DNA of 64,000 nucleotides from a virus (taxonomy: Duplodnaviria; Heunggongvirae; Uroviricota; Caudoviricetes): IMG/VR virus record IMGVR_UViG_3300025678_000001, one strand, 5' to 3'. The position numbers and the translations under genes were made by a program. Below the pieces are notes generated by a model. It worked only from the letters and a program-made list of their open reading frames with translations, was not told where the DNA came from and did no database searches. Below, piece after piece: positions 1,462 through 60,071 of the stretch. Each line of letters starts with the position of its first letter. The first letter of the stretch is position 1.

Positions 1462-1552
1462 ATGGGTGTTGAGGTTAGTATACGGTGTATGAAAATAGAT
1501 ACAAAATGTAGAACTTATCTACAATCTATACACCTTTTATTAACAAGTTCTA

Positions 1553-1590
1553 TAAAAAGAAACCCCCGGTATAGACATACCAGGGGGGTG
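1553..1590 (-). terminator. rho-independent terminator (minus strand)
   Basis: GC hairpin CCCCCGGTAT...ATACCAGGGGGG followed on the minus strand by TTTCTTTTTAT. Confidence 0.45.
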
Positions 1591-1633
1591 TTATGTCAGA
1601 GGAAACCAACAAAACCACTGACTTTTATATCGT

Positions 1634-2512
1634 TTAAGCTATACATCCAAAAGGTCCAAGTAAGCTTCCACCTCCGCTAAGAACAGAAGGTGTGGGGGAT
1701 CCAGGTTCAGTAGCTATGGTATCTCCATTATTGAAGGTTGCTGAAATCGGTGAAGAAGATCCACAAGGAGTGTATTCCACCAGACCTGGGCCACTAGATC
1801 CGAAGAGTGTGTAGCATGCACAAGATCCAGGAGTATTACACTCTACACAGCTTGTGTACACAGCAATAACATCATTTGTATTTGGTGTACCAGTCGGACT
1901 TACGTTGTCAAAACACTGGTAAGATCCACCACCACAGGTACTACACCAGGCTCTTACAATGTCAGCACCTGTAAGGGAAAGAGTAGTCCGGAAGGCTACT
2001 GTGATTCCTCCACCACAAAGAATACCCGTATAGTAGTTATATGCCGGCGTTCCGCATGCGGTACCACATACAACATCACTTGTAGAACCATCTAGATCCA
2101 CGTCAAAAGAACCTGGATCAGGAGTGATCAAAGCACCAAGCTTATAAGTGTAAGTACCTACTTTATAGTACAGATTACTTGAAGGTGTAAGAGGAATAGA
2201 GGATCTTACAACTATGGTATTAGTTCCACCTACCTGAGCACAACTATCAAGACAGTTGAACTTAGTTGCAGTATAGTAATAGAAGTCATAAGCTGTAGAA
2301 AAGCTTTGTGCACTGGAATAAAGACCTCCACCACATGAAGCTTCGATGGTACCCGCGTAGGCTGATTCAGTAAGGCCAGTTTCAACAAAGGGACTTCCAC
2401 TGATCATCCGTACCGTAACGCTGGAAGGATTACTTACAGGCCAGAATCTAACCCGGTAGGATCCTGGGTTTGGACTAGCTAGAGTAAAGTTTACAGTAAG
2501 TGTATAGGACAT
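1634..2512 (-). CDS. Cys/Gly-rich virion structural protein (hypothetical)
   Basis: 292-aa ORF in the minus-strand structural operon; low-complexity G/T/S/C-rich. Confidence 0.5.
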   Translation of the reverse strand: MSYTLTVNFTLASPNPGSYRVRFWPVSNPSSVTVRMISGSPFVETGLTESAYAGTIEASCGGGLYSSAQSFSTAYDFYYYTATKFNCLDSCAQVGGTNTIVVRSSIPLTPSSNLYYKVGTYTYKLGALITPDPGSFDVDLDGSTSDVVCGTACGTPAYNYYTGILCGGGITVAFRTTLSLTGADIVRAWCSTCGGGSYQCFDNVSPTGTPNTNDVIAVYTSCVECNTPGSCACYTLFGSSGPGLVEYTPCGSSSPISATFNNGDTIATEPGSPTPSVLSGGGSLLGPFGCIA

Positions 2513-2523
2513 TGAATATTATT

Positions 2524-2970
2524 TTAAGCAACGCAGAGAGCTCCTTTAGTAAACGTAAGGCCTGGGGTCATTGGAATTACAGTGTTATCAACCGCACACA
2601 CCGTCTTTTCTAGTGTAGTCATGCCTCCTGTAATCGAAATAACCACAGGTGTTGTAGTTCCACAAGGTGTATAGGTGTACATACCAACATCATTCAGAAC
2701 AAAGCTGTAGCAAGTAATAGTAGCCCCAGATACCGGTACGATAATCTCTGTACCAGCTCCACCATCACAATCTGCCTGGATAGATACCTCGATGTTATAA
2801 CAAGAAGGTACTCCGACAATATTGATGGGATTTGTAAACTGGTTCGGAAGAATAGTCCAGGTACTATCTCCAATAACCCTCCATTTAACCTTGTATCCGT
2901 TTACCGGAGCAATGGCAGGTGGGGTCAGTGTGATCTGGGCCGTTTTAAATACTGAGCAAGGATAAGACAT
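2524..2970 (-). CDS. hypothetical structural protein
   Basis: 148-aa ORF tightly packed in the minus-strand operon. Confidence 0.45.
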   Translation of the reverse strand: MSYPCSVFKTAQITLTPPAIAPVNGYKVKWRVIGDSTWTILPNQFTNPINIVGVPSCYNIEVSIQADCDGGAGTEIIVPVSGATITCYSFVLNDVGMYTYTPCGTTTPVVISITGGMTTLEKTVCAVDNTVIPMTPGLTFTKGALCVA

Positions 2971-2987
2971 GATTTAGTGTTTGGTTT

Positions 2988-3623
2988 TTACACGATAGTT
3001 CCTATTCCGGATACTTTTACAGGAGATCCTATGAATGCTTTAAAGCTCTGAGGAGTATTAGACACCACGTTAATCGTAAAGATCTGATGGTCAGATCCTG
3101 TAGCTTTTACTACAGCGTTTCCGGAAAGCGGTGTAGTTGGAGCAAGAGATACAGTGAACGTAGTAGCACTTGTGATTGCAGTTACTGTAGTTCCTGCCTG
3201 GAACTCACCAGTTCCGGATACTACTTCTACAGTCATGCCTACAGCAAGACCAGTTGTACTACCTACAGTGATTGTAACAGTGGAGTTAGTAGCCCCAGGG
3301 GTAGAAGTGTAAATTGGACCAAGTCCAAGATAGGTCACAACTAACGGTGCAGGATTACCTCCAACAGCAGTATTTGTAGCAGTATAAGTAGCAAGATCAA
3401 CCGGTGTGTTGATCAGAGGATTGACAGCTTTATGGAGCTTTGTAAGAATAGTGATAAGACGATCACCATTCAATACTCCCAGGGCCGGCAGGTTAGGACC
3501 GGTATATGCTGTACAATCGGTCTGTACCAGTTCTTCACAAGGCTCTCCATTTACACAGGGAGCCAGCGGTGTTGGAACCGGGGTAGGTGTACAATCAACA
3601 CATGGGTTACAGCCGTAGCACAT
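2988..3623 (-). CDS. hypothetical structural protein
   Basis: 211-aa ORF, Cys-rich N-terminus, T/V/G-rich. Confidence 0.45.
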   Translation of the reverse strand: MCYGCNPCVDCTPTPVPTPLAPCVNGEPCEELVQTDCTAYTGPNLPALGVLNGDRLITILTKLHKAVNPLINTPVDLATYTATNTAVGGNPAPLVVTYLGLGPIYTSTPGATNSTVTITVGSTTGLAVGMTVEVVSGTGEFQAGTTVTAITSATTFTVSLAPTTPLSGNAVVKATGSDHQIFTINVVSNTPQSFKAFIGSPVKVSGIGTIV

Positions 3624-6150: not shown

Positions 6151-6300
6151 AGGATACGAAATATTGGATAACCCTGAAACACAGGGTGTTTGAGTTTAGA
6201 AAGTCTACAATATAATATACGGATTTTCTACAGGAAAAACAAAAAACCACCCCTGGAAAGAGGTGGTTTGTCATGCATCCGTACCGTGTGTTGCGATGGG

Positions 6301-6762
6301 TTAGCTTTCTGTGTCTACAAGCTTGAAGAGAACATGGTAGTTTTCAGTGGTTTCTACTTTCTCAAGAGCTTTAAGACTGATCTTTTTATACTCAATCTCC
6401 TTCTCTGTCTGCAGAAGTTCGTTGAACTCTGTTTCAAATGCTTGAAAATCAGGGTTTTTGATCATCGGTAACTGGTTATCCTCAGTAGAGTTTGGATCTT
6501 CTACCAGGGCAGGAATACTGATGTCTCCAGTCATGTCGTTTGGTTTACCGTACTTTTTGATCAGTTCATTCCTGAACTCGTCAATAGCAGCTTTTTCAAC
6601 CGCAGTCTTTTTAGCCAGATCGGTCAGCCAGTATTTGGTTACCAGCGGAAGCTTCTCGTTCAAAATACCTGTCTGGAGAACCTGACCGGTAGCAAGACGA
6701 ACTCCGTTTAACTCTGCATCCAGGTTATAGATTTCGTACAGTTTAAGGGTGATTTTTTCCAT
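6301..6762 (-). CDS. hypothetical protein
   Basis: 153-aa ORF flanked by TTGTAGAAC motif regions. Confidence 0.5.
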   Translation of the reverse strand: MEKITLKLYEIYNLDAELNGVRLATGQVLQTGILNEKLPLVTKYWLTDLAKKTAVEKAAIDEFRNELIKKYGKPNDMTGDISIPALVEDPNSTEDNQLPMIKNPDFQAFETEFNELLQTEKEIEYKKISLKALEKVETTENYHVLFKLVDTES

Positions 6763-9299: not shown

Positions 9300-12200
9300 T
9301 TAATATTCTGTTTCGATATAAATACGGTTAATACCAAGCTGGATCTGGGTAGCTACTGTTAAAGCAGCATTACTAGCCAGAACACCAGCTGTAAGTAAGG
9401 TTGTGTTTGTGGGAAGGTTGGTTGTAGCAGTACCAGAAGCCTCGGTACCAGTTGTGATATCCACAATTCTCCAAGTATATTGTGAACTGTTTGGAGCACA
9501 GTAGATAAATAGATCATATCCTTTTTTGGATGTGATTGTAAAGCCAGTTGAAGCTTTTGTAGCAGCTGTACCTCTTGTAAGGAACGAGATAGCTCCGTTA
9601 TCAGCAGCATCCACACAGAATCCTACAGTATTGTTCAAAGCTGAAGGATCTGCAGATACTACAGTGGTAGCAGAGTGCATGCCAGCAAAGAAACGACCAC
9701 CATTTGTCCATACGTCAAAACCACAACGAGTATAGAAGAAGAAACCACCTTGACCAGCAGCACCACCCCTCATAAACATGGCATCAGTATTTCTTTGACC
9801 AAGTACCTGGTTCGTTGTAGTTACCACATTTGCGTACCTACTTCTCTTTGTGGCAGTATAAACGTTGGTAGTTGTAGGAAGGGCTGACGTAAATGTACCA
9901 GAACCAGCACCAGCTGTACCAATCCACAAACCAGCTGTTGCACCAGTGGTTGTCCACAGTACAATGTTGTTCTGCCATAAAGCAGATTGTAGAGACATGG
10001 CCAGACCAGTATCCCCGAGGATTCTAGCTGTTGCTCTACCAGCAATATACTTAGAGTATTTTACTGTGTTACCAGATGCAGGAACAGAAGGTTCTGTACT
10101 CAGACCTTTGATAAGCATCTGACTATTTGTAGCCAGTAATGATAAGATACCATTTGTGTCATCCCAGGTAAAGTTAGCAGATGCTCCCAGGGTACCGGCA
10201 TTATTATATTGGATCTGGGTATTTGAACCAGCCGGTGAAGCTGTTACAGTAGCCCAAGTATTATCTCCCCTCAGATATGTTGACGCTGAAGGGGTACCTG
10301 TAGCTGAAAGGTTTGAGATACCTACAATGGAGTTAGCCAGAGTTGTAGCAATAGCTGTTGTCCCAGATCCTGTTACAGCTCCGGATAATGTGATTGTTTG
10401 GTTACCTGTGAGATAAGTGTTTGTATCCAGAGCGAACGTACCAGCAGATGTCATCTTCACAAAGGAAGTTGAGACAAAGGACAGACCTGCTAAAGAAGTC
10501 AGGTTTGTGGACAAAGGTTGAGCACCAATAGTGTTATAACTTACTGTAAGAGCACTAGCTCCATTGAAAGTACTACCAGAAGTTCCACCGGTACCACCAT
10601 TGTTGAATGTAATAGCATTTGTTGTTGTACCACCACTACCAGATGGCGCGGCCCATGTTCCATCTGCACGAAGGAAGTTAGAAGTTCCTCCACCAGAAGC
10701 AGGAACCAGACCTTTCAGAGTACTTGTAAAGACATCCAGAAGTGTGGTAGCTTGTGTACCAGTCAATGTTTCCACGTTACCAGTTCCAGCTGTCACCCTA
10801 CCATGGAATGTACCAGTAGCTACCTGGGCCAACATGGCATTGGTTACCTTATTAGCACCAATGGTTGTTGTGATTGCTGTTGTACCAGTACCGGAAATAT
10901 CTCCAGAGAGTGTGATAGATTGGTTGGCTGTCAGATAAGTAGAACTATCCAGGCTACCATCACCTTTTACAAACTGACCAGACGTACCAGAAATATAGCT
11001 TATAACACCGGCTGTGGATTTTACAATACCAGTTCCTGACAAAGGAGCCTGATAGCTAAGAGCAGGAATATCAGTAGCAACCAGTAACCTAAATCCTGGA
11101 GTACCTGCAGAACCATTAGGAGCCGCATATACAAAGTTTGCAGTTTGAGATCCAAATGTGTTGTTTAGATCTGTACCGGTAACAGCTGTGTTACCCGTTA
11201 CGCGACCCTTTGTATCCAGGGTGATCTTTACAAAGTTGGCACCAGTAGATTGAACTACAGTAGCTAAGGTAGTTGTAATAGCGGTTGACCCTGTACCAGA
11301 AACGTCACCAGAAAGAGTGATCGACTGGTTTGCAGTTAGATAGGTTGAGGTATCAAATACCCAGGTATTGGTACCTGTACCAGTGTACTTCAGTAAGCCA
11401 GCACTGGCTCCGAGAGCCGGGAGAGCTACCCCTCTAAGACCTGTAACTGTTATTGCGGGTGTCAGAGATGTAGCACCAGATCCACCAGAAGAAGATACAT
11501 CTCCTGTAGGACTGAATGAGATTGTCTGGTTAGCTGTAAGATAAGTACTCGTGTCTAGAGTCCAGGTATTCAGAGCTGTTTTCTTAGCAAAACCTGTAGT
11601 TCCAGCCAGTGCTGCTATGGCACTAAGATCACCATCAAGCGGTTGATATGTTGTGGCAGCAGTAGCTGAAGTCAGATAAGGACTCAAAGCTGAACTGGTA
11701 ATATATCCAGAGTCATTCGTAAATGAAGATACGTTTGTCGGGGCCCCTGTTAGCTTACTATAGGCCAGGGAAGTAATCCAGGTTGGATCAGCGTACGAAC
11801 CACTTGTCAGAACATCACCAACACTCCAGGAACGGTTGAGAGATAAATCCAGGGTAGTACCGTTAATAGTCAAAGTTCTGGTTGTCTGTACATATCCGGT
11901 AAGGGCTGATGAGGTTATATAACCAGCATCATTTGTAAAACTGGATACGTTTGTGGGTGCTCCAGTCAGTTTACCATAAGCTAATGAAGTGATCCATGCA
12001 GGGTTTGCATAAGATCCAGAAGTATAAACTCCATTTGTTACAGTTCCGGCATTTCCACTAATACTGATGCTCCAGGTACCAGAAGCACCTGTACCGGTCA
12101 GAGAAGGAATATCAGTACCAATAGCCAGACCAAGATTTGTTCTAGCTGCCAGAGCTGTACTTGCACCAGTACCACCATTTACAATACCAAGTTCTCCAGA

Positions 12201-14882
12201 TACAGCTGCTGACTGATTTAAAGCTACCGCATTCCATTCTACCTGTGTACCGGTAGCATTAACCAGAAGTGATTTATAAGCGGCACCAAGAGTAAGTTTA
12301 CCCCAGGTATTTAAGGCAGAACCGTATAACAGATCTCCTACTGCTACGGTACTTAAACCAGTACCACCATGAGTAGGATCTACAATTCCAGATAAAGAAA
12401 ACTCAGTTCCAATAAGTTGTAAAGGAGCCAATGCTGAGTAATCCGGAGATGCACTAAAGAGTGTAAAGTCAATATCACTAACACCAAAGATAATTGGTGT
12501 ACTGATCGTCATTACATAAGACTCACCAGCACCAGGACTACCTTCTTTCAGATAGAAGTAGTCACCCTGGCCAAGTTTTGATGTACTATTTGGTCCGTAT
12601 TTATTAGTATCAGTAGAGCGGGTAAGCACCCAGTTAGTAGAACCAGATCCTACGTTTGTTACGGTATAAATACCGTTTTTGTACATAGCAACATCTTGAT
12701 CAAGTAAAACTCGATCACCCACATTCATTGTAACACCATTGATGACAAGAGCTGCTTGTACACCAGCATTTGTAAGAGTGGCTCCAACACCGGTATTAGC
12801 TTTACCACCTAGAGTATATCCAGATCCATTTGTAAGAGTTGTAATCTCAACACCACCATAAGTGGCAGATACTAGAAATGTATTCGGTGTAGGTACATCA
12901 TGTACAAAGTAGGCAACACCAGTTGTCAGACCATAAGCTGATGTATTGAATGTCACTACATCATCTACAGATAATCCATGGTTTACAGAAGTTGTCAGTG
13001 TTGTACCGCCTGAGATTGCAGTTACTGTAAACGTAGTTCCACCATCAGCATAGGTGGCGTTAACAGGACCATGAAGTTCTACACGAACTGCAGGATGAAT
13101 ATCAATACCAGTTGAGGTAGCATTATCTACATACTCTTTTGTAGTAAGTTGTGTAGCGTAAGTAACTGGGGCTGTAGCATACATAGCACCAGTAGATGAT
13201 ACGTTTCCAGTAATTCTGGCTGAACCAACAACCTGGAGTTTGTTTACCGTATCATCAGTAATAGTATTCAGAAGCAGGTTACCTGTTGCTGCTTTCAAGG
13301 TCATTTTGATATCAGCAGAAGACAGACCACCTGCAAACAGCACAATATCACTACCAGGAGTACCAGTACCTAAGTAGAGCATAGAAGGCTGAGCTCCTGC
13401 CCCACCTCCGGTAAACACATAACCAGAGTTAGCTGGAAAGATTGAATAGGTACTAGAGCTGTAGTTAGAGCTGTTGATACCCATATCAATGAAATAAGAA
13501 TCTACATCTGATGCATCATTATAAGCTACAAAGTCAGCTGAAGCATCTGAACCAGCATGTAGGTTTTGTACATATACCAACTGATAGTTGTTGGTATTTG
13601 ATACAAAACTAGCCATGGTATTGATGTACGGGGTATTACTTGTAACACCAGTACCATATACCTGTAGAGTCTTTGCTATGATGTCAGTAGCTGTAAGATC
13701 GTGTAAACCAAGATCCAGATCAGAAGTTGCCCCACTATAAGGAACGAATCCTGATACAGCAGCTACAGAAAGTGTAAAGTTTGGATAACTACCAGTGATT
13801 GTTACTCCACCTCCATTTGTAAGTGTTACTACCTGATCAGGAGCAGAGTTAGTAATTACACCAGTAGTATTGTTATAGTTAATACCAGTACCAGAAGATA
13901 AACCAGTACGAGCTATATAGTTGTTTGGATTACTTAAAGGATAGTAAGTGGCTGCTGCTGTTACAGAAGTCAGATAACTACCAAGAGCAGAAGGTATGAC
14001 ATAGTCTACCCCAGCTGTGGCGGCACTGATAGCAGTACCATTACCTTTCAGTAAGCCATTGATTGTAGTAGATAAAGTGATGGCTGGTGTAGTTGTAGCA
14101 TTAGCTACAGTTCCTGCAAAACCGTTTGCTGAAACAATAGAAACAGTAGTTACTCCACCTGTAGATACTGATGCCCAGGAAAGAGAAGAGCCATCTGTTG
14201 TCAGGAATTTACCTCCATTACCAGTTTGATCAGGAAGAGTTACTTCCATCAGAAGATCTGAGTAGATTACAATATCTACCACATCACCACTATGAACTGG
14301 ATCAACAAATGTGATACTGTGAGAAGTATTAGAGAACGAAGAGGTATTTATACGAACACCATTGATGAATACATCAAAGTATCCTACAACGAGCGTATGA
14401 GTAGTATTAAAAAGAGTCTGACCTTCAATACCACTGAAACTTTCTGTATAACGAGTAGTTGCGGTACCGGAAATAGCAGCTGTGGATATGTTGGAGATAC
14501 GACCATACTGGTCAACAGTAATAATAGGAACAGCGTTTGTTCCTCCGTAAGTATCTGCAGTTACCCCGGTAGTTGCCAGATCCAGAGTAACATCACCTGT
14601 TCCAGGATCAACGCCAGTACTTAAGATTGAAAGATTAGGTCCAACTGATATCTTACTTACATATGCTACGTCAATAGAAGATCCACTCCAACCAGTACCA
14701 TTCCAGGTAAACAGGTTATTTAGAGTAATATCATAAACAATGAAACCCTTATCACTAAGACCAAGAGTTCCACCAAGAGTGGTTCTATCAGTAGTAGTTA
14801 AAGGGTGAACCCGGGCGTTTAACAGCTTGTTTTTGTCCAGGTCTATGTTGTGTAGATATCTTGTTGTATCTAAGGTAGACAT
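9300..14882 (-). CDS. giant tail fibre or tail-associated protein (1860 aa) with several internal repeat families
   Basis: 5.6-kb ORF; tandem ~50-aa repeats (SGSYA[DN]P[AT]WITSLAY[GS]KLTGAPTNVSSFTND[AS]GYITSSAL), four STYLTANQSITLSGD repeats, and the INGTTLDLS motif shared with the 721-aa fibre. Confidence 0.65.
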   Translation of the reverse strand: MSTLDTTRYLHNIDLDKNKLLNARVHPLTTTDRTTLGGTLGLSDKGFIVYDITLNNLFTWNGTGWSGSSIDVAYVSKISVGPNLSILSTGVDPGTGDVTLDLATTGVTADTYGGTNAVPIITVDQYGRISNISTAAISGTATTRYTESFSGIEGQTLFNTTHTLVVGYFDVFINGVRINTSSFSNTSHSITFVDPVHSGDVVDIVIYSDLLMEVTLPDQTGNGGKFLTTDGSSLSWASVSTGGVTTVSIVSANGFAGTVANATTTPAITLSTTINGLLKGNGTAISAATAGVDYVIPSALGSYLTSVTAAATYYPLSNPNNYIARTGLSSGTGINYNNTTGVITNSAPDQVVTLTNGGGVTITGSYPNFTLSVAAVSGFVPYSGATSDLDLGLHDLTATDIIAKTLQVYGTGVTSNTPYINTMASFVSNTNNYQLVYVQNLHAGSDASADFVAYNDASDVDSYFIDMGINSSNYSSSTYSIFPANSGYVFTGGGAGAQPSMLYLGTGTPGSDIVLFAGGLSSADIKMTLKAATGNLLLNTITDDTVNKLQVVGSARITGNVSSTGAMYATAPVTYATQLTTKEYVDNATSTGIDIHPAVRVELHGPVNATYADGGTTFTVTAISGGTTLTTSVNHGLSVDDVVTFNTSAYGLTTGVAYFVHDVPTPNTFLVSATYGGVEITTLTNGSGYTLGGKANTGVGATLTNAGVQAALVINGVTMNVGDRVLLDQDVAMYKNGIYTVTNVGSGSTNWVLTRSTDTNKYGPNSTSKLGQGDYFYLKEGSPGAGESYVMTISTPIIFGVSDIDFTLFSASPDYSALAPLQLIGTEFSLSGIVDPTHGGTGLSTVAVGDLLYGSALNTWGKLTLGAAYKSLLVNATGTQVEWNAVALNQSAAVSGELGIVNGGTGASTALAARTNLGLAIGTDIPSLTGTGASGTWSISISGNAGTVTNGVYTSGSYANPAWITSLAYGKLTGAPTNVSSFTNDAGYITSSALTGYVQTTRTLTINGTTLDLSLNRSWSVGDVLTSGSYADPTWITSLAYSKLTGAPTNVSSFTNDSGYITSSALSPYLTSATAATTYQPLDGDLSAIAALAGTTGFAKKTALNTWTLDTSTYLTANQTISFSPTGDVSSSGGSGATSLTPAITVTGLRGVALPALGASAGLLKYTGTGTNTWVFDTSTYLTANQSITLSGDVSGTGSTAITTTLATVVQSTGANFVKITLDTKGRVTGNTAVTGTDLNNTFGSQTANFVYAAPNGSAGTPGFRLLVATDIPALSYQAPLSGTGIVKSTAGVISYISGTSGQFVKGDGSLDSSTYLTANQSITLSGDISGTGTTAITTTIGANKVTNAMLAQVATGTFHGRVTAGTGNVETLTGTQATTLLDVFTSTLKGLVPASGGGTSNFLRADGTWAAPSGSGGTTTNAITFNNGGTGGTSGSTFNGASALTVSYNTIGAQPLSTNLTSLAGLSFVSTSFVKMTSAGTFALDTNTYLTGNQTITLSGAVTGSGTTAIATTLANSIVGISNLSATGTPSASTYLRGDNTWATVTASPAGSNTQIQYNNAGTLGASANFTWDDTNGILSLLATNSQMLIKGLSTEPSVPASGNTVKYSKYIAGRATARILGDTGLAMSLQSALWQNNIVLWTTTGATAGLWIGTAGAGSGTFTSALPTTTNVYTATKRSRYANVVTTTNQVLGQRNTDAMFMRGGAAGQGGFFFYTRCGFDVWTNGGRFFAGMHSATTVVSADPSALNNTVGFCVDAADNGAISFLTRGTAATKASTGFTITSKKGYDLFIYCAPNSSQYTWRIVDITTGTEASGTATTNLPTNTTLLTAGVLASNAALTVATQIQLGINRIYIETEY

Positions 14883-16221: not shown

Positions 16222-16354
16222 AGGGTATAAACTTTAGAGAGTTATATGTATAATGTGTACAGGTTCTCAATAATAATATACAAAATCTTAAGGACCTATC
16301 CAAAAAGAAAAGGGGAAGGTATAGACCTCCCCCTTTATAATGGATCGTGTAAGA

Positions 16355-38326: not shown

Positions 38327-38458
38327 AACTAAGCTGTTTTAAAAGTGAGGGGGCTTTTACACCCCCTTGGGCTAAGGCAGGTCTGTCAAGTTTCATGAGT
38401 TCTCTACAAATATAAGAAACCAGACTCCAGTTCTCCAAATATTTCTACAAGTTTCCTT

Positions 38459-45625: not shown

Positions 45626-45850
45626 ATGAAAAAACTTCTTTTACTACTTGGTTTCCATAGTACTAATGAAGTAGAGGCCCCTACTCCTCGTTCTGAAGTT
45701 GTTGAACGCCCCTTTGATGCAAAAGACTATGCATTGTGGTGTAAGCAGTTTAACGTATCCAGGATGAGTAACCGTAACGGTCAGTTCACTGTTCGGATTG
45801 GAGAAACTGAAAAGGTTGTAGAACTTGACAGCAACCTCAACATTTCTTAA
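45626..45850 (+). CDS. hypothetical protein
   Basis: 74-aa ORF. Confidence 0.4.
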   Translation: MKKLLLLLGFHSTNEVEAPTPRSEVVERPFDAKDYALWCKQFNVSRMSNRNGQFTVRIGETEKVVELDSNLNIS

Positions 45851-45870
45851 CTTTACTTTTTTGTAGAACT

Positions 45871-46434
45871 ATGGTATTCCAAAACATCAAGCTTAACCAT
45901 GAAGTAGATGACTTCAAGGAAGCACTCGGCCTTACAAAAAGTCTGATGAATGTCTGCAGGGAAAGGATCTTCTTCTCCCACTTTGCCAACAACTTGATGG
46001 CCATTGAGTTATATGACTCAAAGGATGCAGCACCTAATGACCTGACCACCATATCTGGTGACCTTCAGCGTTGTCTGAAGATGATAACAGATCCTCTGGA
46101 GTATGAAGCTACACTTCTGTTCTTTTCACACTACCACGAGATAGCAATCCATGCTTTCAAGTATTGGAAGCTTGAGCATGCAAAAGATTTGACTGTAGAA
46201 CAGAAACTCAAACTCTCCATTCTGAAGCTGACTTTAGAAGCAGCCAAGAAGAAGGTAGAGCGTGAGAACAAAGAAAACGTCCTTTTACTCAGCGACCTGG
46301 TACAACGCATAGATGTAGTAGTTAAATCTAACTATAACTTCAGTAAGTACATGAAAATCATAGGCATTCCCTATGACGATGGTACTTCCCAGGTGGACGA
46401 CATGCTGAAAGACCTCTTTAAAGATGGTGACTAA
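45871..46434 (+). CDS. hypothetical protein
   Basis: 187-aa ORF; TTGTAGAACT motif abuts its ATG (leaderless?). Confidence 0.5.
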   Translation: MVFQNIKLNHEVDDFKEALGLTKSLMNVCRERIFFSHFANNLMAIELYDSKDAAPNDLTTISGDLQRCLKMITDPLEYEATLLFFSHYHEIAIHAFKYWKLEHAKDLTVEQKLKLSILKLTLEAAKKKVERENKENVLLLSDLVQRIDVVVKSNYNFSKYMKIIGIPYDDGTSQVDDMLKDLFKDGD

Positions 46435-46453: not shown

Positions 46454-46524
46454 TTTGTTTACACTTTGTAGAACTAAGAAAAACGTCTACATTTGTTCTA
46501 CATCTTTAAAGTTTACATGTTACA
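46454..46524 (+). promoter_or_regulatory. iteron-like cluster of GTT(C)TACA repeats with a TTGTAGAAC box upstream of the wHTH gene
   Basis: GTTTACA, TTGTAGAAC, GTCTACA, GTTCTACA, GTTTACA, GTTACA within 70 bp. Confidence 0.35.
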
Positions 46525-46808
46525 TGAAAAAGAATCCCCGGTTGTCCGGTGGGTTTGGAATGGTATCCAAGACAGTAATGTCAGATCCAGAACTCTCCAT
46601 GAGAGAGAAGGGTCTGTATGCTTACCTGGCTACATATGCTGATAGTGTAACAAACGAGCTGACAGTAAGTGTAAACAGGATGTGTGCTGAGCTTGGTATT
46701 ACCCAGGCCACCGTTAAAAGATCTTTGAGTTTACTTGAGAAGAAAGGTATCATAACCAGAGTTGACAAACGTGCATGCACTGTAAGAACTACAGTGCTTT
46801 TAAAATAA
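46524..46808 (+). CDS. winged-helix DNA-binding protein (replisome-organiser/DnaD-like N-terminal domain?)
   Basis: MKKNPRLSGG...LYAYLATYADSVTNELTVSVNRMCAELGITQATVKRSLSLLEKKGIITRV wHTH pattern; iteron-like GTTCTACA repeats upstream. Confidence 0.5.
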   Translation: MKKNPRLSGGFGMVSKTVMSDPELSMREKGLYAYLATYADSVTNELTVSVNRMCAELGITQATVKRSLSLLEKKGIITRVDKRACTVRTTVLLK

Positions 46809-47238
46809 CTAGGTACCAGGTCGAGGGAATGTTTGCTCACGTAATGGGTAAATCCTTCTATGCATAGGTTTATGCTGTTATTGGAACAGATACCCCTCGA
46901 TCCTAGTACCAAACTTTTTGTTGACTGATCACTAGAGCCATACAAACTCTGTAGAGGGCAGATCGAGCTGGTTCATGTAAAGAAGATGCTAACCTTACAC
47001 TGGCTGTAAGAAGATGCAGATTTCTTGCAGGTAGGTTGAAACACTTGCCACATGTTCAAGTGCTCTCTGTTTGCAGCAGAAGCGGTCTCCTCATAAGAGA
47101 CTTATGTCCTGGAGATAGCCCCAACAAAGCCAAGTCTGATCCTGGTGGGTGTTGCTTTGAAACATGCTCCAAGGGTACGCCGTGCTACAGAGAATGCGTA
47201 GACAACACCACCCAGGATAGACTTAAAAACAGTACAGT

Positions 47239-47970
47239 ATGAAACATTCTAAAGTCGTAGGCCAGATCTACGAAACAACCAATTATGAAATGTTCAAAAA
47301 ACGCAGTGACAACCGTCAGCTGAAAGAACACATCGTAAAAGAAAGAATGGAAAGCATCAAGCAGATTGGCCAACAAGATGCTATCAAGGTTTCTAAAGAC
47401 TTTATGGTAGACGACGGCCAACATCGGTTGGAAGCTTGCAGAAGGCTTCAAAAACCGGTAAAATATACTTTCCAGGAAGAGCCGCTCAGTACTCACGAGC
47501 TGGCCACCTTGCAGACACAATCTTCCCGGTGGAAGGTTGAAGACCACGCTCAATCTTTCCTGTCAAAAGGAATTGAAGACTACAGACTTTATAACCTGTT
47601 TGTAAAACTCTATCCTGAGTTCAACCACAGTGTTGCGTTAGTTCTTCTGACCAATACGATCAGCAGAAACCGTCACACTGAAGAACAATTCAAGATCGGA
47701 ACATTCAAAGTGAAAAGCTATACGAAAGCCGTTAAGCTGGCAGATCAGCTTAGAAAAATAGGTGAGTACTATGAAGGCTATGTTCGTAATGGATTTATCC
47801 AGGCATTTCTGACTTTGGCTGAACATCCGGACTTTGAGTTCAACCGGTTACTCCGGAAGATTCCTAAGCGTAGGAAAGAACTGATGGACTTCTCTAAAGC
47901 AGAGGATTACATCCAAACACTGGAACATATGTACAACTGGAAAGAAACCAAGAAAGTACAGTTTACATAA
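47239..47970 (+). CDS. ParB-like nuclease domain protein
   Basis: DGQHRLEA motif (ParB/Srx DGxHR) in a 243-aa ORF. Confidence 0.5.
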   Translation: MKHSKVVGQIYETTNYEMFKKRSDNRQLKEHIVKERMESIKQIGQQDAIKVSKDFMVDDGQHRLEACRRLQKPVKYTFQEEPLSTHELATLQTQSSRWKVEDHAQSFLSKGIEDYRLYNLFVKLYPEFNHSVALVLLTNTISRNRHTEEQFKIGTFKVKSYTKAVKLADQLRKIGEYYEGYVRNGFIQAFLTLAEHPDFEFNRLLRKIPKRRKELMDFSKAEDYIQTLEHMYNWKETKKVQFT

Positions 47971-49825: not shown

Positions 49826-50013
49826 TCTGATACTGAGAGCTAGTAAGTAATCTATGGGGAAGTCCGTCGAACAGTTTTTCACTTAGTACCGTCCCCGTGT
49901 GATAATAGGCGTAGCCGGTCTGGGAACCGTGCATAAACCCAGTAGATCCACTCGAAGTAGTGTGAAAGCTATCCTCAGTATAGACCTTGGCTTGGAACAC
50001 TTGTGCCAGTAAA

Positions 50014-50086
50014 CAGGTGTACTCAGGGAGTAGCTCAGATAGGAGAGCATCCGGGCGACCCCCGGAAGGTCGGTGGTGCAAGTCCA
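50014..50086 (+). ncRNA. degenerate tRNA-like element
   Basis: canonical D-arm TAGCTCAGATAGGAGAGCA and T-stem GGTGG/CCACC, acceptor 6 of 7 pairs, but anticodon loop GCGACCC (C33) and T-loop TGCAAGT are non-canonical. Confidence 0.3.
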
Positions 50087-50113
50087 CCCTTCCTAACTAA
50101 ACCAAAGAAACCT

Positions 50114-50914
50114 ATGAGTTACGCCATTAAACTTTTATTCTTTTTAGGTAGTTGTATTCTTGCATTTGTAGCCGGTAGGCTTACAAGCAGTCTGTCTTAC
50201 CACTGGAGTCAAGTGGATGGGCCGAATCAGGCCGTTATAGTTTCACCCAATGACAGTACCACACAAGTCAACGGTTTGGTACAGGGTGTCTATCATTTTG
50301 AGTTAGCAGTTACCGACCCTCAAGGAGCTACAGGACGGGATACCATGATGGTTACCGTACTTCCTGGAGTTCTTCCTATCAAACTGGTTTACTTCAAAGC
50401 GTACCCGCTGGCTGATGTAAACATGATCAAGTGGAAAACATCTGAAGAGATAAACATAAAAGAGTTTATCCTGGAATCCTCTACAGACGGTGTTCATTTT
50501 TACGGTCTCTATCATACGTTTGCTATCGGAGCTACACCAACCTCTCCTTCTGAGTATGACTATGAACATAAGTTCCCAGGAAGAGAGCAGTATTACAGAC
50601 TTAAGTCTATTGAGACATCTGGTACTTATACATACAGTGATGTTGTAAAAGTAACCAGATCTATTTCGACATCTATTTGGTCAAACAACCCTGTTACATC
50701 GACTCTTAATGTTACCATAAACGTAGATAATGCTACTACAGCTAACTTCTACATTTATGATGCTACCGGAAGAAGAATGGCATTCTATACGTACAATCTA
50801 AGTCCTGGTAAGAACAGTTTCAGTTATCATACTGGTCAGTATGCTTCTGGTCTGTATATCATTAAAGTTGACGTAGGAGGTATTATCTCAACCAAAAAAT
50901 TCGTCAAACAATGA
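50114..50914 (+). CDS. secreted protein with Ig/PKD-like domain and a Type IX secretion system C-terminal sorting domain
   Basis: signal peptide MSYAIKLLFFLGSCILAFVAG; C-terminus ...NSFSYHTGQYASGLYIIKVDVGGIISTKKFVKQ matches the Por/T9SS CTD pattern; the ORF-track start at 50003 is rejected because it lies within a tRNA-like element. Confidence 0.65.
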   Translation: MSYAIKLLFFLGSCILAFVAGRLTSSLSYHWSQVDGPNQAVIVSPNDSTTQVNGLVQGVYHFELAVTDPQGATGRDTMMVTVLPGVLPIKLVYFKAYPLADVNMIKWKTSEEINIKEFILESSTDGVHFYGLYHTFAIGATPTSPSEYDYEHKFPGREQYYRLKSIETSGTYTYSDVVKVTRSISTSIWSNNPVTSTLNVTINVDNATTANFYIYDATGRRMAFYTYNLSPGKNSFSYHTGQYASGLYIIKVDVGGIISTKKFVKQ

Positions 50915-52596: not shown

Positions 52597-53290
52597 TAAG
52601 CTTGTAAAGTATGTAGTCTTCCAGTGACATGAGGACGGTAAGATGTATCGGTTAATAACCAGAGTCTTACGAGTAAGTCACCTTTACATGATCAGGCTAA
52701 ACATTGAAGCCTTTGTACGCTGCTCGACGACATTTGTAACGTGAGTCAGACTGCATAAAGATAACAACCCTGAATGAACAGGGTGTAGATAACCTTAAAG
52801 CAATAAGAGGTGAGAAAAGTACCTTGAGGGTCTAAGAACGATGGACACTTTTATAGTGCACCAGTTTCCCGCCAGAGTAAGGACGGAGGGACTAAGACTA
52901 TATCTTTCAAAATCTATGGAGTAATCCTGTACGTGTTGTTCCCTTGAGAAAGGAAGGGTTACGTGGATGAGCGTGGTTAAGAGCCTACCCCCAACAACAC
53001 GAATGAGTTTTCAGCAAGTAGTTATGAGGAGGAGATTAAGATTCTCTATCAGGTACAGAAGCCAAAGCGGAGTGCTCTGTTAGGTAAATGGGATGCTTGA
53101 GTAAGCCGTTATATTAAAGCATCGGTAATAACTACACGACCCTACTCTTATAGAAGACTGAGGCTTGATAAGAGCCCATCCTCACTGAAATATGACCAGA
53201 CCTCTTTTACATGACCAAGTTTGTAGAAGAAGGGTACTGTAAGGAGTCATTACTATAAGACAAGAGGGTGCTAGTGATTTACAAGGAACA

Positions 53291-54689: not shown

Positions 54690-54810
54690 GGGCTTATTAG
54701 TTCAGTGGCAGAACACCGGGTCCGATGAGGCGGCTTTTATTAAGGTTATTGCAACCCCAAAAGAAAACCGAAACCCCGGGAGGTCACCAGTTCAAATCTG
54801 GTATAAGCCC
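54690..54810 (+). tRNA. tRNA-like gene with a ~47-nt structured insertion replacing the anticodon loop
   Basis: G(-1)+GGCTTAT acceptor pairing with ATAAGCC+C73, D-arm TA-GTTC-AGTGGCA-GAAC, T-arm ACCAG-TTCAAAT-CTGGT, anticodon stem CCGGG/CCCGG flanking 54 nt containing its own hairpin. Confidence 0.45.
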
Positions 54811-54844
54811 CTATAAACAAACACTTTAAATTAGTCTAAAGCTT

Positions 54845-55084
54845 ATGAAAGTCTTATTCGGAAAGATGCCCAGTAAGTTGATCGTACGTTTGAAGATAGC
54901 ACTGGGTATCTTTACTATCTGTACGATCTTTGGGATTATAGGGTACTTTGTACCTTCTTCAAAGCCTCCCTTACTTAGAACATTTGCTGCGTTCATCCTA
55001 CCACTTGCTTGTCTAACAGCAGTTCTGATCTTGTTTAAGATCATGGAATTTATCCTGTGGTGTTTTGATTGTAAGCCCAGGTAA
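54845..55084 (+). CDS. small membrane protein (hypothetical)
   Basis: 79-aa ORF with two TM helices, downstream of the tRNA-like gene. Confidence 0.3.
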   Translation: MKVLFGKMPSKLIVRLKIALGIFTICTIFGIIGYFVPSSKPPLLRTFAAFILPLACLTAVLILFKIMEFILWCFDCKPR

Positions 55085-55498
55085 AAATATAGTACAGAGG
55101 AGGTAGGCTTGGAAGTAGCCATAAGGTAGAACCTTACTCTTGGGTTGAGGCTGGCTGAGATCAGATATACATCTAAGAGTCCTTTAAAGAGTTGCAAGTA
55201 GGACCCGTAACTGATTATGTGACGACTAAAAGTGGTAAAACTACAGGAGATATAGTCCTGATGAAAAGAAGTAAGCGTCAATAGGACTGAGTAGCTGGAT
55301 TATTATACACTCCTTAGAGCATTTGGTGTAACAACACACTCTGTACTTTTTTCTTAGCTCCGGGGATCACACCATCCGTCAATCTGGTTGTGTTATGTTT
55401 AAGCAAGCTTAAAAGAGCAGCTCCATTGGTCTGTTTACTGTCTGGTGAGCTCAGACTTTAAAAAGTAGAATGGGTCAACTGGAAAAGCTGCAGAAATA

Positions 55499-55530
55499 TT
55501 TGTAGAACTCCTAAAAAAGTTCTATATTTG
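55499..55530 (+). promoter_or_regulatory. Bacteroidetes-type promoter (-33 TTTG within TTTGTAGAAC, N20, -7 TATATTTG) driving the tmRNA-like gene
   Basis: TTTG at 55499-55502, TATATTTG at 55523-55530, RNA 5-prime GGGCCCG at 55540. Confidence 0.5.
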
Positions 55531-55539
55531 TTCTACACT

Positions 55540-56195
55540 GGGCCCGTCTGGTTTAGACAGCAGAGTGAGTGGTAACTACACATGTGGACAAAGTAAGAAC
55601 GTCCTAAAATACTTACAAAACAATAAACGCTATGACTAAGTCTGAGCGTGTAGCAGAAGGTGAAGCTATCCTGGCTTCTATCTTCGTTGATGAGGCTGTA
55701 GCAGCCTGATCCTACGGGGGATCTATCCCTGGCAACAGAAAATAGAACTGAAGTCTTATATGAGCATACAGAACTAAACGGGACATATGCCGTAAAGTAA
55801 TCCGTGTATAAGACGTAGAGTGGCTCCCTTAATAGTCTAGGCTGACCTAGAGCATTCTAACTGAAGCATGGTATACAGGGGGTGAAGCCGTGCAACCCAG
55901 CTATGGGTTACCAGAATGATACAGTTACAGATGAGCGTAGTATGTGAAAACATTCAAATAAGTATCTGTTATAAAAAGTATAGTGACTGAATGTTTGGTA
56001 GTAATAGCATGTTTTCCTGGTTATGTCAAAACTAGGTGGTGGAGTAGGCGGTCTTGATTGGACGCCCCCAAACTACGGTGCAGATGAAGTGACGCAGTCT
56101 TTTAGACTTGATCCAAAGTAATCAGTACTAAACATGTAATACGTTGTAGTTATTGACTTCTTTGTTGGACACGAGTTCGATTCTCGTCGGGTCCA
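55540..56195 (+). ncRNA. ssrA: candidate phage-encoded tmRNA (ssrA-like), unusually long (~650 nt)
   Basis: 5-prime GGGCCCG-UCUGGUUUAGAC parallels E. coli tmRNA 5-prime GGGGCUG-AUUCUGGAUUCGAC; 3-prime GGAC-ACGAG-UUCGAUU-CUCGU-CGGGUCC-A parallels GGAC-GCGGG-UUCAACU-CCCGC-CAGCUCC-A; the 5-prime and 3-prime 7-mers pair (one GU); internal frame ...ASIFVDEAVAA followed by UGA at 55707; consensus promoter upstream and rho-independent terminator downstream; no ORF of 60 aa or more. Confidence 0.45.
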
Positions 56196-56221
56196 CTCTC
56201 TCAAAGCTAAGCAATCGTTAG

Positions 56222-58241: not shown

Positions 58242-58244
58242 GCC

Positions 58245-58811
58245 ATGTTGACAAAAGAAGAATATAAAGAACTTAAAGATTCCTTCTTCAACTTTATGAA
58301 GAAGCTTCTGGTCGAACAAGGTGACCTGAATCCCTGTATTGTACTAATGGGAAAGAAGCTTGCTAATGCCTTGGGAGAAGAAGAAGAATCAAACGCAGTA
58401 GTTTACGTTCCCATTCCTGGTAAGTACATGAAGACAGAGAAGACCAAGGAAGAATTTGTAACAGAAGTAATACCAAAAATGGGAACAGAAATACGTCAAT
58501 ACTTTTCTATCTACGCAGTAGCATGGGTAGCAGAAGCCTGGGTACGTGAAGTTCATCAAGGTGAAGTTCCTGTTAACTGGAAAGATCTTCCTATTCAAAA
58601 AGAAGTTTTGATCATTACGATTGAAACCAAGGATGCCACAGAAGGTATTACATTTGAGATCAAACGAAACGGGAAAGAAGTAAACGCAGAAGGTGAGCTG
58701 ATTGACCACATCGAACTGATCGAAGATATACGAGCCAATGGGTTTATTCCTTCAGGAGGACGTTTCAGTGGTTTGTACAAACAATTCACAGAATCTGGGA
58801 CAAGCTCTTAA
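58245..58811 (+). CDS. hypothetical protein
   Basis: 188-aa ORF directly after the AAA+ gene. Confidence 0.5.
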   Translation: MLTKEEYKELKDSFFNFMKKLLVEQGDLNPCIVLMGKKLANALGEEEESNAVVYVPIPGKYMKTEKTKEEFVTEVIPKMGTEIRQYFSIYAVAWVAEAWVREVHQGEVPVNWKDLPIQKEVLIITIETKDATEGITFEIKRNGKEVNAEGELIDHIELIEDIRANGFIPSGGRFSGLYKQFTESGTSS

Positions 58812-59130
58812 ACTTGTTCCAGATTTTTATATAGTACCCCCTTTTTTTCATTAATACAAAGCTTATGAATTGGTTAAAAAAACTATTCACTAAAGATGAT
58901 TGTGAACAAGCTAAAAAAGAGCTGGAGCAAAAAGTCGTCATCTTAGAGGCTGAACTGGAGAAAAGGCAGGAAGCCATTAACCGGACCAATGCCTACTGGA
59001 AAAAACGCTTCTACAACAGACGAAGAAATCCTTCCAGTTCCTGATTATAGCTCTATTATCCACACTTCCAAACTCCGGATTTTGTATAACTAGTTGTAGA
59101 CCTTATCTTTATAAGATAAGTAAACACCCT

Positions 59131-59391
59131 ATGTTGTACCAACTGCCAAACGGTAAGGTCATTGAGATCTCCACTGAGCAGTATCTGGAACTATCTGATG
59201 AAGAACTGGAATACCTCGTTGCTTACAATTACGGAGAAACCGTGGAAAACCCATGGTTTGGATCCGTTTTAAGCAGACGTGAATCAGCTTCCATCACTGA
59301 AGATCCAGAAACAGCTGAAGATCTGACTGAGATTCCGGAAGAAGATAAGCTATCTGCACTTGATATGGACTTTGAGCCTGAGGAAGAATAA
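59131..59391 (+). CDS. small acidic protein
   Basis: 86-aa E/D-rich ORF. Confidence 0.4.
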   Translation: MLYQLPNGKVIEISTEQYLELSDEELEYLVAYNYGETVENPWFGSVLSRRESASITEDPETAEDLTEIPEEDKLSALDMDFEPEEE

Positions 59392-59478
59392 TCCCCAAGC
59401 CTGAGTTTCTCAATAACGTAATAACCCTGGTTACCTGAGGTAGCTGGGGTTTTTTATTCATTCCCTAAACAGTTCGTT

Positions 59479-59952
59479 ATGTACGGAAAAGTAAAGGTGA
59501 CTGCTGATGAAAACGGAAACATCATCGGTCGGTCCCAAAACAACCCCGAGTTCGGCTATATCCGTGTAGAACAACAGGTTACGCAAATCAACCAGGAAGG
59601 TTGGCTCAGGCGTGCCACTCGTTCTGCTCTGATCAAAGGCCGTGTAGATGATTTGGTAGCAGCGTCGTTCACTGCTGGCCAGGAACTCCCCGGAAAGATC
59701 GTAGTACGGGAGTCTTTTGAACCCTTCAATCCGCAGAATCCGGATCGTGATCTGAAAATGGCGGGAACCACCGGCGTTATCTGCCGCGTAGGTGATCAGC
59801 CGATCTATCGTCAAAGCTTCTATGTCACTGATGATACAGCTTCTGATGAGCTGATCATGCACGACAACAGAGAAGAGATCCGCCAGGTCCAAGCTGTCTT
59901 ACGTCTGACAGAAAAGGACACCTTTAAAGAAACACCTGTAGCTACTCTCTAA
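59479..59952 (+). CDS. hypothetical protein
   Basis: 157-aa ORF. Confidence 0.5.
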   Translation: MYGKVKVTADENGNIIGRSQNNPEFGYIRVEQQVTQINQEGWLRRATRSALIKGRVDDLVAASFTAGQELPGKIVVRESFEPFNPQNPDRDLKMAGTTGVICRVGDQPIYRQSFYVTDDTASDELIMHDNREEIRQVQAVLRLTEKDTFKETPVATL

Positions 59953-60071
59953 GTAGCTCTATAAGAGTAGGAGTGCCTGGTAACCTAGTTACTGGGCACT
60001 CTTTTTATATGTAGACTATTCTTTGGAGAACTGTCACAAGTTCTCTAACTTCACCATTTAAACTGTAGATC

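Follow-up and report, generated by a model that had tools for sequence, protein, structure and literature searches.

Promoters of the Bacteroidota sigma-A type, described for Bacteroides and Flavobacterium, have a −33 element TTTG and a −7 element TAnnTTTG, with a spacer of ∼17 to 23 nt. Autoregulated winged-helix and helix-turn-helix (HTH) repressors of phages and plasmids (lambda-type CI/Cro and MarR- and PadR-type proteins) have operators over their own promoters. In the KorA/KorB network of plasmid RK2 and with p4 of phi29, one short operator recurs at many promoters and its position decides the effect, and the MotA box of T4 serves sigma appropriation at middle promoters, in one orientation and at a fixed position near −30. 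LexA boxes also sit in some phage promoters. To our knowledge, nothing is known about the transcription signals of the large uncultured phage group to which the DNA analyzed here belongs, a stretch of 64,000 nt (IMG/VR record IMGVR_UViG_3300025678_000001) that we refer to as the window. A preliminary description of the window had noted a recurrent intergenic box, TTGTAGAAC or its inverted form GTTCTACAA, often paired with a second box, CTACAATACAAAKATAC, and had read the composite as a single extended phage promoter consensus, possibly recognized by a phage factor.

Our analysis shows that this composite pooled two separate elements, a core promoter and a lineage-specific 10-mer, TTGTAGAACT. 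We propose, with a probability of roughly 0.5, that the winged-helix protein encoded at 46524-46808 is a box-binding, autoregulated repressor with a small regulon on host-type promoters. An autoregulated repressor whose operator spread to further promoters would be the most economical reading of the sites. The window provides a concrete regulator-operator candidate pair for a very abundant, unstudied phage group and a usable promoter model for that group, consisting of a host-type −7 box and a family-wide TGTAGA start region. The gene switch would be of an ordinary kind and would leave the general understanding of phage regulation unchanged, and what it offers is a starting point for annotating these phages and for experiments.

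Core promoter and 10-bp box

The first box is recurrent in the window, with 12 exact copies of TTGTAGAAC/GTTCTACAA against 0.84 ± 0.98 expected (none of 100 shuffles reached 12) and 58 sites with ≤1 mismatch (23.5 expected). Nine exact copies lie at, or ≤8 nt from, sites listed previously: 6797, 23270 (given as 23262), 33396, 34772, 35770 on the minus strand (given as 35763), 37220 on the minus strand, 45861 (given as 45864), 46466, and 55500. The other listed sites are one-mismatch variants or partial matches. Those at 1547 (TTATAGAAC, 1547-1555), 38437 (TTGGAGAAC, 38430-38438, and TTGTAGAAA, 38442-38450), 46495 (ATGTAGAAC, 46495-46503), and 55527 (GTGTAGAAC, 55530-55538), all on the minus strand, are one-mismatch variants, and the site at 1519 is merely a partial match, TTGTAGAT. 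Exact copies missing from the earlier list are those at 2080 and 21293, inside genes and at about the number expected by chance, and at 45816, in the final codons of a gene 45 nt before 45861. The second box, searched with ≤2 mismatches, gave four matches (23227, 34749, 35741, and 37199) against 0.03 expected, and the site formerly placed at 6202 is a shorter variant, CTACAATATAATATAC.

The box is enriched in non-coding DNA, which makes up ∼15% of the window. An unbiased comparison with coding DNA returned TTGTAGA, TTGTAGAA, and TGTAGAACT as the most non-coding-enriched 7-, 8-, and 9-mers; 10 of 14 copies of TGTAGAACT are non-coding (P = 1.5e-6), as are 8 of 12 copies of TTGTAGAAC as scored, or 9 of 12 after correction of a mis-called open reading frame (ORF) start at 46455. 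The k-mer comparison rules out a background k-mer equally common in coding sequence, the alternative that the preliminary description had itself raised. The box is also tightly associated with the −7 element, as had been proposed: TGTAGA or TCTACA lies within 35 nt of 15 of the 44 TAnnTTTG sites, compared to 3.9 ± 1.9 at random (0 of 1000 placements reached 15). All eight sense non-coding TAnnTTTG sites, plus that at 46488, have TGTAGA or TCTACA within 45 nt, and exact non-coding sites number eight in sense versus two in antisense orientation (46488 counted in addition). Literature searches returned only primer sequences for the motif and nothing applicable for phage TAnnTTTG promoters and crAss-like promoters.

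On the transcribed strand, the second box reads GTAT(A/C)TTTGTATTGTAG, followed by TATTGTAG, and holds exact Bacteroidota −7 boxes (TATATTTG and TATCTTTG), as the preliminary description had recognized. The reverse complement of the second box is the core promoter, GTAT(A/C)TT(T/A)..A.TGTAGA, which is strand-specific and conserved across more than 30 related phage contigs. Among 80 related loci (denoted here by L numbers), GTATATT...A.TGTAGA occurs 94 times in sense and 9 times in antisense orientation, compared to ∼20 per strand in shuffles. When the window is aligned with 30 related loci over the spacer that separates the portal gene from gp422, all keep the block GTTTAAAGTTGTATATTnnnAnTGTAGAg and an A-rich leader before the ATG. 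A relaxed form (GTATATT, 3 to 4 nt, A, 1 nt, TGTAGA) precedes structural genes at 84-103, 6203-6233, 16263-16281, 23224-23243, and 33350-33366, and in these copies the TTTG of the −7 box becomes TTAT or TTTT (GTATATTAT...). TGTAGA is conserved around the predicted start in all core copies, and the hexamer just 3′ of the −7 box belongs to the family-wide core rather than to the 10-mer. The core is also present in lineages lacking any TGTAGAACT box.

The sites are promoter-like, as previously suggested, in being intergenic and often just past terminator hairpins (the preceding gene's hairpin at 1506-1555, 6203-6233, and 16263-16281), and a similar promoter lies ∼10 nt before a tRNA in L151. A TTG or TTTG is found at −33 with a spacer of 19 to 21 nt in the sites that we number P4 to P9, and no TTG lies closer than 25 nt in P1 and P2. 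The TTG of TTGTAGAAC does lie 19 to 20 nt upstream of the −7 box in P5, P8, and P9, as claimed, and in a further example (34758-34789) the TTTG lies outside the box. We interpret the sites as probable promoters of the Bacteroidota host sigma-A type, presumably served by the host polymerase. Like described sigma-A promoters, nine sites in the window have an exact TAnnTTTG, mostly with TTG or TTTG 19 to 21 nt upstream, and they precede genes or RNA genes. Unlike them, the phage promoters have TTAT or TTTT before structural genes, a conserved TGTAGA at the predicted start, and added TTGTAGAACT boxes.

The phage host is a member of the Bacteroidota: the product of gene 50003-50914 ends in a type IX secretion system (T9SS) C-terminal sorting domain, no Shine-Dalgarno sequences were found upstream of the window genes, and sigma-70-type promoter matches are not enriched in the window (23, compared to 30.1 in shuffles). 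Terminator-like hairpins are enriched (36, compared to 13.9 expected). A search of 596 Gb of genomes with the 17-mer GTATATTTGTATTGTAG gave 76 matches, for a chance estimate of ∼70, of which only the taxonomic skew (43 of 76 in Bacteroidota) is informative.

The 10-mer is variable in orientation and spacing. Counted from the first T of the −7 box, the upstream box is inverted at −11 in P1 (6781-6805) and P2 (33381-33404), direct at −14 in P6 (37198-37228) and P11 (6203-6233), inverted at −16 in P4 (34746-34780), direct at −22 to −24 in P5 (35741-35778), P7 (38399-38450), P8 (46466-46503), and P9 (55500-55538), inverted at −36 in P10 (23224-23278), and direct at −37 in P7; P8 and P9 are on the plus strand and the others are on the minus strand. 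Downstream boxes are found at +5 (P1, P2, and P7), at +7 as the complement TTCTACA (P8 and P9), and at +9/+10 (P4 to P6, P10, and P11). A repeat finder returned inverted pairs at P1, P2, P8, P9, P10, and 60023, and the tenth base, which follows TGTAGAAC, is T in 13 of 13 non-coding F-type boxes (P ∼ 6e-8). Relatives differ in the box while retaining the core: across the portal-gp422 alignment every sequence keeps the core, whereas the upstream box is restricted to a few close relatives, with degenerate copies in others and an inverted one in L018. The density of TGTAGAACT is 2 to 3 per 10 kb in the window, L244, and L088-L090 and zero in L082-L086, L091, and L250-L252. The box evolves apart from the core promoter, being gained, lost, or flipped between relatives.

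A single extended consensus does not describe a box that occurs in both orientations, from −37 to +10, and is dispensable in relatives. We suggest instead that TTGTAGAACT is an operator read on double-stranded DNA by a factor of its own, rather than a sigma contact or an RNA signal, because it occurs in either orientation, at many distances, and on either strand at the start site. As with the T4 MotA box, a phage-specific box at about −30 replaces or overlaps the −35/−33 element in P5, P8, and P9; in contrast to it, TTGTAGAACT is found in both orientations, from −11 to −37 and from +5 to +10, and the start site is also covered. An RNA-level signal (5′/3′ pairing or terminator hairpins) was rejected on three grounds: the start-site box occurs both as TGTAGA and as its complement, the stems that inverted pairs could form would be AU-rich, 8 bp long, and closed by loops as long as 38 nt, and boxes downstream of transcript starts do not fall at gene ends. 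A host LexA box was likewise discarded, as the Bacteroidetes SOS motifs, GGA-N5-TCC and CTAA-N5-TTAG (PMC8565304), do not match TTGTAGAACT. In the sister lineages L082 and L083, a search for alternative boxes gave coding-sequence words as the top words.

Winged-helix gene 46524-46808 and its promoter

The gene at 46524-46808 on the plus strand encodes a 94-amino-acid (aa) winged-helix protein (Pfam HTH_36, E = 7.7e-11) and is preceded by P8, in which TTGTAGAACT is followed after 7 nt by ACGTCTACA, the −7 box TACATTTG (46488-46495), and GTTCTACAT. Boxes are densest here within the window, in a layout that runs from an F box through an inner inverted box, fused to the −7 box, to an R box. The earlier suggestion of a phage factor, with a winged-helix protein among those proposed for binding assays, fits a three-box promoter in front of a winged-helix gene, and the protein is our candidate box-binding autoregulator. 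The AlphaFold model of the protein (predicted local distance difference test score, 84.6) is a winged helix, with the DNA-binding domains of CodY, ArsR/HlyU, and MarR-type repressors as the nearest solved folds.

Public contigs were searched with the composite shared by P8 and P9, TTGTAGAAC-N11-17-TAnATTTGTTCTACA, and further orthologues of the gene were fetched by protein similarity alone before their upstream DNA was read. The composite search returned a single IMG/VR contig, 3300047476_001057 (L236, identical to L107), a relative of this phage, and seven short contigs from a metagenome collection; the composite precedes an orthologue of 46524-46808 in L236 and in the metagenome contig L241. 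The three-box layout is kept before the orthologues in L236/L107 (70% identity), L244 (79%), L245 (71%), L246/L247 (73%), L248 (67%), L249 (64%, with variant boxes), L081 (54%), L088 (52%), and L241 (48%). Counting distinct related sequences, nine orthologues share with the window gene an operator in the gene's own promoter. The exact sequence of the window protein is also encoded on a contig of 135.6 kb. In L246 and L247, the sole non-coding boxes within ±10 kb sit at the winged-helix promoter, and in the window and L244 boxes are also present at tRNA and other promoters.

These observations are consistent with the following mechanism. A host sigma-A promoter would be specified by the −33 TTG and the −7 TAnnTTTG, with transcription starting ∼5 to 7 nt past the G, and the phage lineage would have added copies of the separate 10-bp operator TTGTAGAACT onto such promoters. 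The winged-helix protein would bind the boxes, which lie beside or across the −7 box and extend over the start site, and, once bound, would block RNA polymerase. Repression is proposed because of this placement of the boxes over the −7 box and start site. The predicted regulon would comprise the protein's own promoter P8, the promoters of the transfer-messenger RNA (tmRNA) and of the tRNA array, some small ORFs, and a few structural-gene promoters.

As in autoregulated repressor systems, inverted boxes bracket the −7 box and start site of the putative regulator's gene, and the arrangement is conserved with the gene. Unlike in those systems, boxes are also scattered at about ten other promoters, singly or as direct or inverted pairs with variable spacing, and the protein consists of an HTH_36 domain alone, similar to the part of replication initiators that binds DNA. 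Reuse of one short operator at many promoters of a mobile genome is shared with RK2 KorA/KorB and phi29 p4; in contrast to those networks, a ParB- or KorA-type link is unsupported here and nothing points to activation.

Several points weigh against the winged-helix protein as the binder. First, its closest PHROG families are the N-terminal domains of replication initiators and DnaD-like loaders, and it may instead have an origin-related role. Second, the gaps between extended arms of inverted pairs are 6, 7, 14, 21, and 31 nt, and direct pairs also occur; spacing and orientation would be too variable for one simple mode in which a dimer binds a palindrome. Third, the orthologues in L250-L252 (57 to 60% identity) overlap the upstream gene and lack a promoter of their own or nearby boxes, and box-positive and box-negative lineages show only subtle differences in the recognition helix, a pattern that L241 breaks (relatives were viewed over ±1.5 to 10 kb each). 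Fourth, a scan of viral contigs with TTGTAGAACT-N5-8-AGTTCT gave mostly chance matches in coding sequence; among the 120 matches listed, three were scored as preceding a winged-helix homologue (L305, L348, and L372), and L256 has the same promoter, unscored. Finally, the 9-mer TTGTAGAAC is also an element of a conserved host PadR promoter, which is considered below.

In the box-negative loci L082-L086, a terminator hairpin lies ∼100 nt before the winged-helix gene, and TGTAGA and TCTACA form the base of its stem.

Other candidate binders and readings of the box

The explanation ranked second, behind the winged-helix protein, is that a putative PadR-family regulator of the host binds the boxes and that the promoters of the phage regulator gene, tmRNA, and tRNAs are wired into a conserved host regulon, comparable to the LexA boxes of some phage promoters. 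The resemblance appears too specific to ignore. In four of the seven metagenome contigs matching the composite (L237, L239, L242, and L243), a palindrome, TTGTAGAAC...TAnATTTGTTCTACAA, with a box at −33 and an inverted box abutting the −7 element, precedes a PadR-family gene, and in L238 and L240 the element precedes a catalase gene. It is also found before two PadR-family genes for which protein similarity was the sole basis of choice, one in Poritiphilus flavus (L253) and one in a Cyclobacteriaceae metagenome-assembled genome (L254); at both it reads TTGTAGAACA(A/T)AT...TA(G/T)ATTTGTTCTACAA. P8 and P9 share the outer architecture of these host promoters, with the same 9-mer at the same positions (at −33 and inverted, fused to the −7 box), and a search for a PadR homologue in the window found none.

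The host and phage elements nevertheless differ. In the host, the arm extends over 16 nt (TTGTAGAACAAATATA), and the C is followed by A in 16 of 16 cases, in contrast to T in the 13 phage F boxes, which also lack the AAAT extension of the host arm. The phage does not have this 16-nt arm on both sides; only the right arms of P8 and P9 match it, because the −7 box falls within them. A third, inner inverted box is present in phage promoters and absent from host promoters, many phage boxes are single or direct repeats, and the regulator gene that follows P8 encodes an HTH_36 rather than a PadR protein. Because the flanking base differs, the inner third box is absent in the host, and the window lacks a PadR gene, we consider binding by a host PadR protein unlikely.

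A related and still less probable proposal is that the phage box is a diverged operator copy of a deeply conserved Bacteroidota PadR regulon (FtsX/MacB-type permeases and catalase) and that there is cross-talk between the two. If true, host PadR would sense a stress or xenobiotic signal and gate the promoters of the phage regulator, tmRNA, and tRNAs, or, alternatively, the phage winged-helix protein would also act on host PadR-controlled promoters. Phage expression would then be coupled to a host stress circuit, perhaps including the lysis-lysogeny choice in integrase-bearing relatives.

The host palindrome was itself an unplanned by-product of the search. In its full form, TTGTAGAACAAATATA ... 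TATATTTGTTCTACAA, it precedes a PadR-family gene that is widespread in the Bacteroidota (1821 homologues at E ≤ 1e-20), with FtsX/MacB-type permease genes just downstream of the PadR gene in L253 and L254. A literature search for a host PadR palindromic promoter found no description, and the TTGTAGAACAAATATA palindrome looks like an apparently undescribed promoter/operator of this regulator.

The reading favored by the preliminary description was that the box belongs to the promoter itself, as an extended −33 element together with an initiation-region element, both read by RNA polymerase with sigma-A or by a phage-modified polymerase. The position of the box TTG 19 to 20 nt from the −7 box in P5, P8, and P9 (21 nt for the TTGGAGAAC variant in P7) and the family-wide conservation of a TGTAGA immediately 3′ of the −7 box agree with it. 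The upstream box, however, is inverted in P1, P2, P4, and P10 and ranges from −11 to −37, the −33 TTG is outside the box in P4 and P6, the start-site box is mostly TGTAGA but is the complement TCTACA in P8 and P9, and the upstream box is dispensable in relatives. We regard this reading as doubtful, and below the two PadR-based proposals.

Slightly weaker again is the case for another phage protein as the binder, either the HxlR-family winged-helix protein (33534-33920 on the minus strand; Pfam HxlR, E = 1.5e-21) or a ParB-like protein (47239-47970; PHROG E = 2.7e-33) acting in a KorB-like manner on dispersed operators. The HxlR gene is present in the window, L107, and L245-L247, with the palindrome P2 just downstream of it, but no box lies upstream of the gene in the window and none lies near it in L246. 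Gene co-occurrence gave the HxlR protein no further weight: a peptide scan found one IMG/VR relative, and later loci have HxlR without nearby boxes. The ParB-like gene lies 430 nt downstream of the winged-helix gene, which is followed by a gene of similar size (245 to 249 aa) in L244, L246, L248, and L249. The box-positive L088, however, has no ParB-sized gene there (no ORF of ≥120 aa within ∼2 kb downstream of the winged-helix gene), on which ground the neighbor was set aside, and neither the HxlR nor the ParB-like gene has boxes in its own promoter.

Least credible, and by far, is a promoter of a phage-encoded RNA polymerase as in a crAss-like relative: the portal protein is distantly crAss-like and the structural block encodes an 1860-aa protein of no assigned function, but promoters of single-subunit or virion polymerases would be ≥17 nt long, in one orientation, and at a fixed distance from the start, whereas the box is 9 to 10 bp long, in both orientations, at variable distances from genes, and always accompanied by host-type −7 boxes, and PHROG, Pfam, and PDB sequence searches detected no such polymerase in the window.

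Remaining promoter sites and neighboring features

The window is phage DNA, and its minus strand carries genes for the major head protein (20278-21897), the portal protein (23316-26069), and the large terminase (26380-28578). Minus-strand genes, among them the structural genes and the tRNA array, occupy the stretch from 1 to ∼38.3 kb, and plus-strand genes occupy the part from ∼38.7 kb onwards. A search of GenBank phages with the window found no close DNA relatives. The portal protein shares 23 to 31% identity with its counterparts in a Leptolyngbya phage, Cellulophaga phages phi4:1 and phi17:2, and crAss-like phages, and the phage is distantly related to the crAss-like and Cellulophaga phages. 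At least 596 IMG/VR contigs encode a related head protein, with 83 to 97% identity within the best 80 and lengths of ∼100 to 135 kb for the longer contigs.

P9 consists of TTGTAGAACT, 8 nt, and AGTTCTATA, overlapping the −7 box TATATTTG (55523-55530), followed by GTTCTACAC. It ends 1 nt before the tmRNA gene (55540-56198 on the plus strand; Rfam RF00023, 60.7 bits, full model 1-374), the Rfam model starting at 55540, 10 nt past the G of the −7 box. The tmRNA is 659 nt long, with two long insertions relative to the Rfam model (189 versus 44 and 227 versus 101 positions) and no ARAGORN call, and the relative L107 also has a tmRNA, with the tag GMTQSDRVAEGDAILASLFGEVAIAA.

At least 20 tRNA genes lie in the array at 34048-37012 on the minus strand. 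P6, at its head, has TTGTAGAACT, aac, and GTATATTTGTATTGTAGG, and both box and core are kept in the orthologous promoter of L244. P5, inside the array, has TTGTAGAACT, 7 nt, AGTTGTATATTTG, and then TATTGTGA; a P5-like promoter stands directly before a tRNA in L151. P4 has the inverted box GTTCTACAA, 6 nt, and GTATCTTTGTATTGTAGATG. P4 and P5 are each followed 130 to 230 nt on by a strong terminator (34619-34588 and 35518-35489, respectively), and inspection of the sequence ∼150 nt past P6 revealed a hairpin and T run (37050-37013). The region 34580-37228 is thus organized as three units on the minus strand, each with a boxed promoter, 130 to 260 nt, a terminator-like hairpin, and tRNAs. One unit holds a 35-aa Cys-rich ORF (34641-34748), and the others may specify small RNAs. 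A tRNA gene on the opposite strand (54691-54810, plus) has a 53-nt insertion in the anticodon loop and possibly bears an intron.

Two further sites are palindromes enclosing the −7 box: P1, before gene 6301-6762, is GTTCTACAA-N7-TTGTAGAAG around TAACTTTG, and P2 is GTTCTACAA-N7-TTGTAGAG around TAAATTTG. A second core, GTATATTATACTGTAAC (33350-33366, minus strand), follows P2 and precedes gene 33118-33333, and the P2 palindrome with its tandem core is conserved in L107 and L119/L133/L151/L159. P10, between the portal gene and gene 21929-23197, has GTTCTACAA, 26 nt, and GTATATTTTTATTGTAGAAG; P11, just past a terminator, has CTGTAGAAA, atcc, and GTATATTATATTGTAGAC; and P7, in the divergent region, has TTGTAGAAA, TTGGAGAACT, and the −7 box TATATTTG followed directly by TAGAGAAC. 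A variant palindrome on the plus strand (60023-60074) reads TTGGAGAACT-N6-AGTTCTCTAA, then TGTAGATC and the ATG of gene 60072-60593; its homologue in L088 reads TTGTAGAACT...TTGTAGAAG ATG. On the minus strand, a degenerate site (1506-1555), TTATAGAACT ... TATAGATTGTAGATAAGTTCTACAT, stands after a terminator and before gene 142-1461, and core-type promoters are present at the window edge (84-103, GTAAATTATTAATGTAGAAC) and, without a box, after a terminator (16263-16281, GTATATTATTATTGAGAAC), the latter with orthologous copies in relatives.

A direct pair of TTGTAGAACT boxes 45 nt apart (45816-45873, plus strand) abuts the ATG of gene 45871-46434 with its second box. L248 and L249 likewise have two boxes before the orthologous gene, with a different sequence between the boxes; a search of IMG/VR found no relative of this gene. 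The leaderless mRNA previously suggested here is possible, but the case is weak, as no canonical −7 box precedes. Leaderless transcripts would be better supported at 34746-34748 and 60072, because the ATG there is 0 to 2 nt after TGTAGA. In P4, the ATG of the 35-aa ORF lies inside TGTAGATG, 9 nt past the G of the −7 box, and at 60064 TGTAGATC is directly followed by the ATG of gene 60072-60593. Very short leaders for some units (P4 and 60072) are plausible but unproven.

An 1860-aa protein (9300-14882, minus strand) is encoded in the structural block; PHROG, Pfam, and PDB sequence searches gave no match for it, and, given the distant crAss-like kinship, a virion RNA polymerase and a giant tail protein are both possible. 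Four stretches of 400 to 850 nt in the plus-strand half (38974-39818, 46809-47238, 52597-53290, and 54811-55539) are without a convincing ORF or Rfam match. A tyrosine integrase is encoded a few kilobases downstream of the winged-helix gene in L245 (13627-14760), L246 (14452-15564), and L247 (14646-15758), and part of the phage family may therefore be temperate; none was found in the window among the ORFs scanned, which were part of the total.

Two other short sequences recur near promoters or start codons. The 16-mer TATAGCYCTATTATCC (23296-23311, minus strand, and 59046-59061, plus strand) lies 20 to 30 nt upstream of two boxed promoters; in related loci (L001-L091) it is found 48 times in sense and never in antisense orientation and is very well conserved at the same two orthologous places. 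ACCC(T/C)(T/A)A(A/C) occurs 12 to 25 nt before start codons at 42150, 44764, 49245, 52126, 41517, and 59463 on the plus strand and at 21910 and 17730 on the minus strand, usually directly behind a terminator hairpin; the motif also precedes the major head gene. A counterpart, AAACCCTTGAT, occurs 11 times in L246 (3548-6651), always in sense orientation and mostly between a terminator and an ATG. The motif could be a second promoter class without a host-type −7 box or, alternatively, a translation signal.

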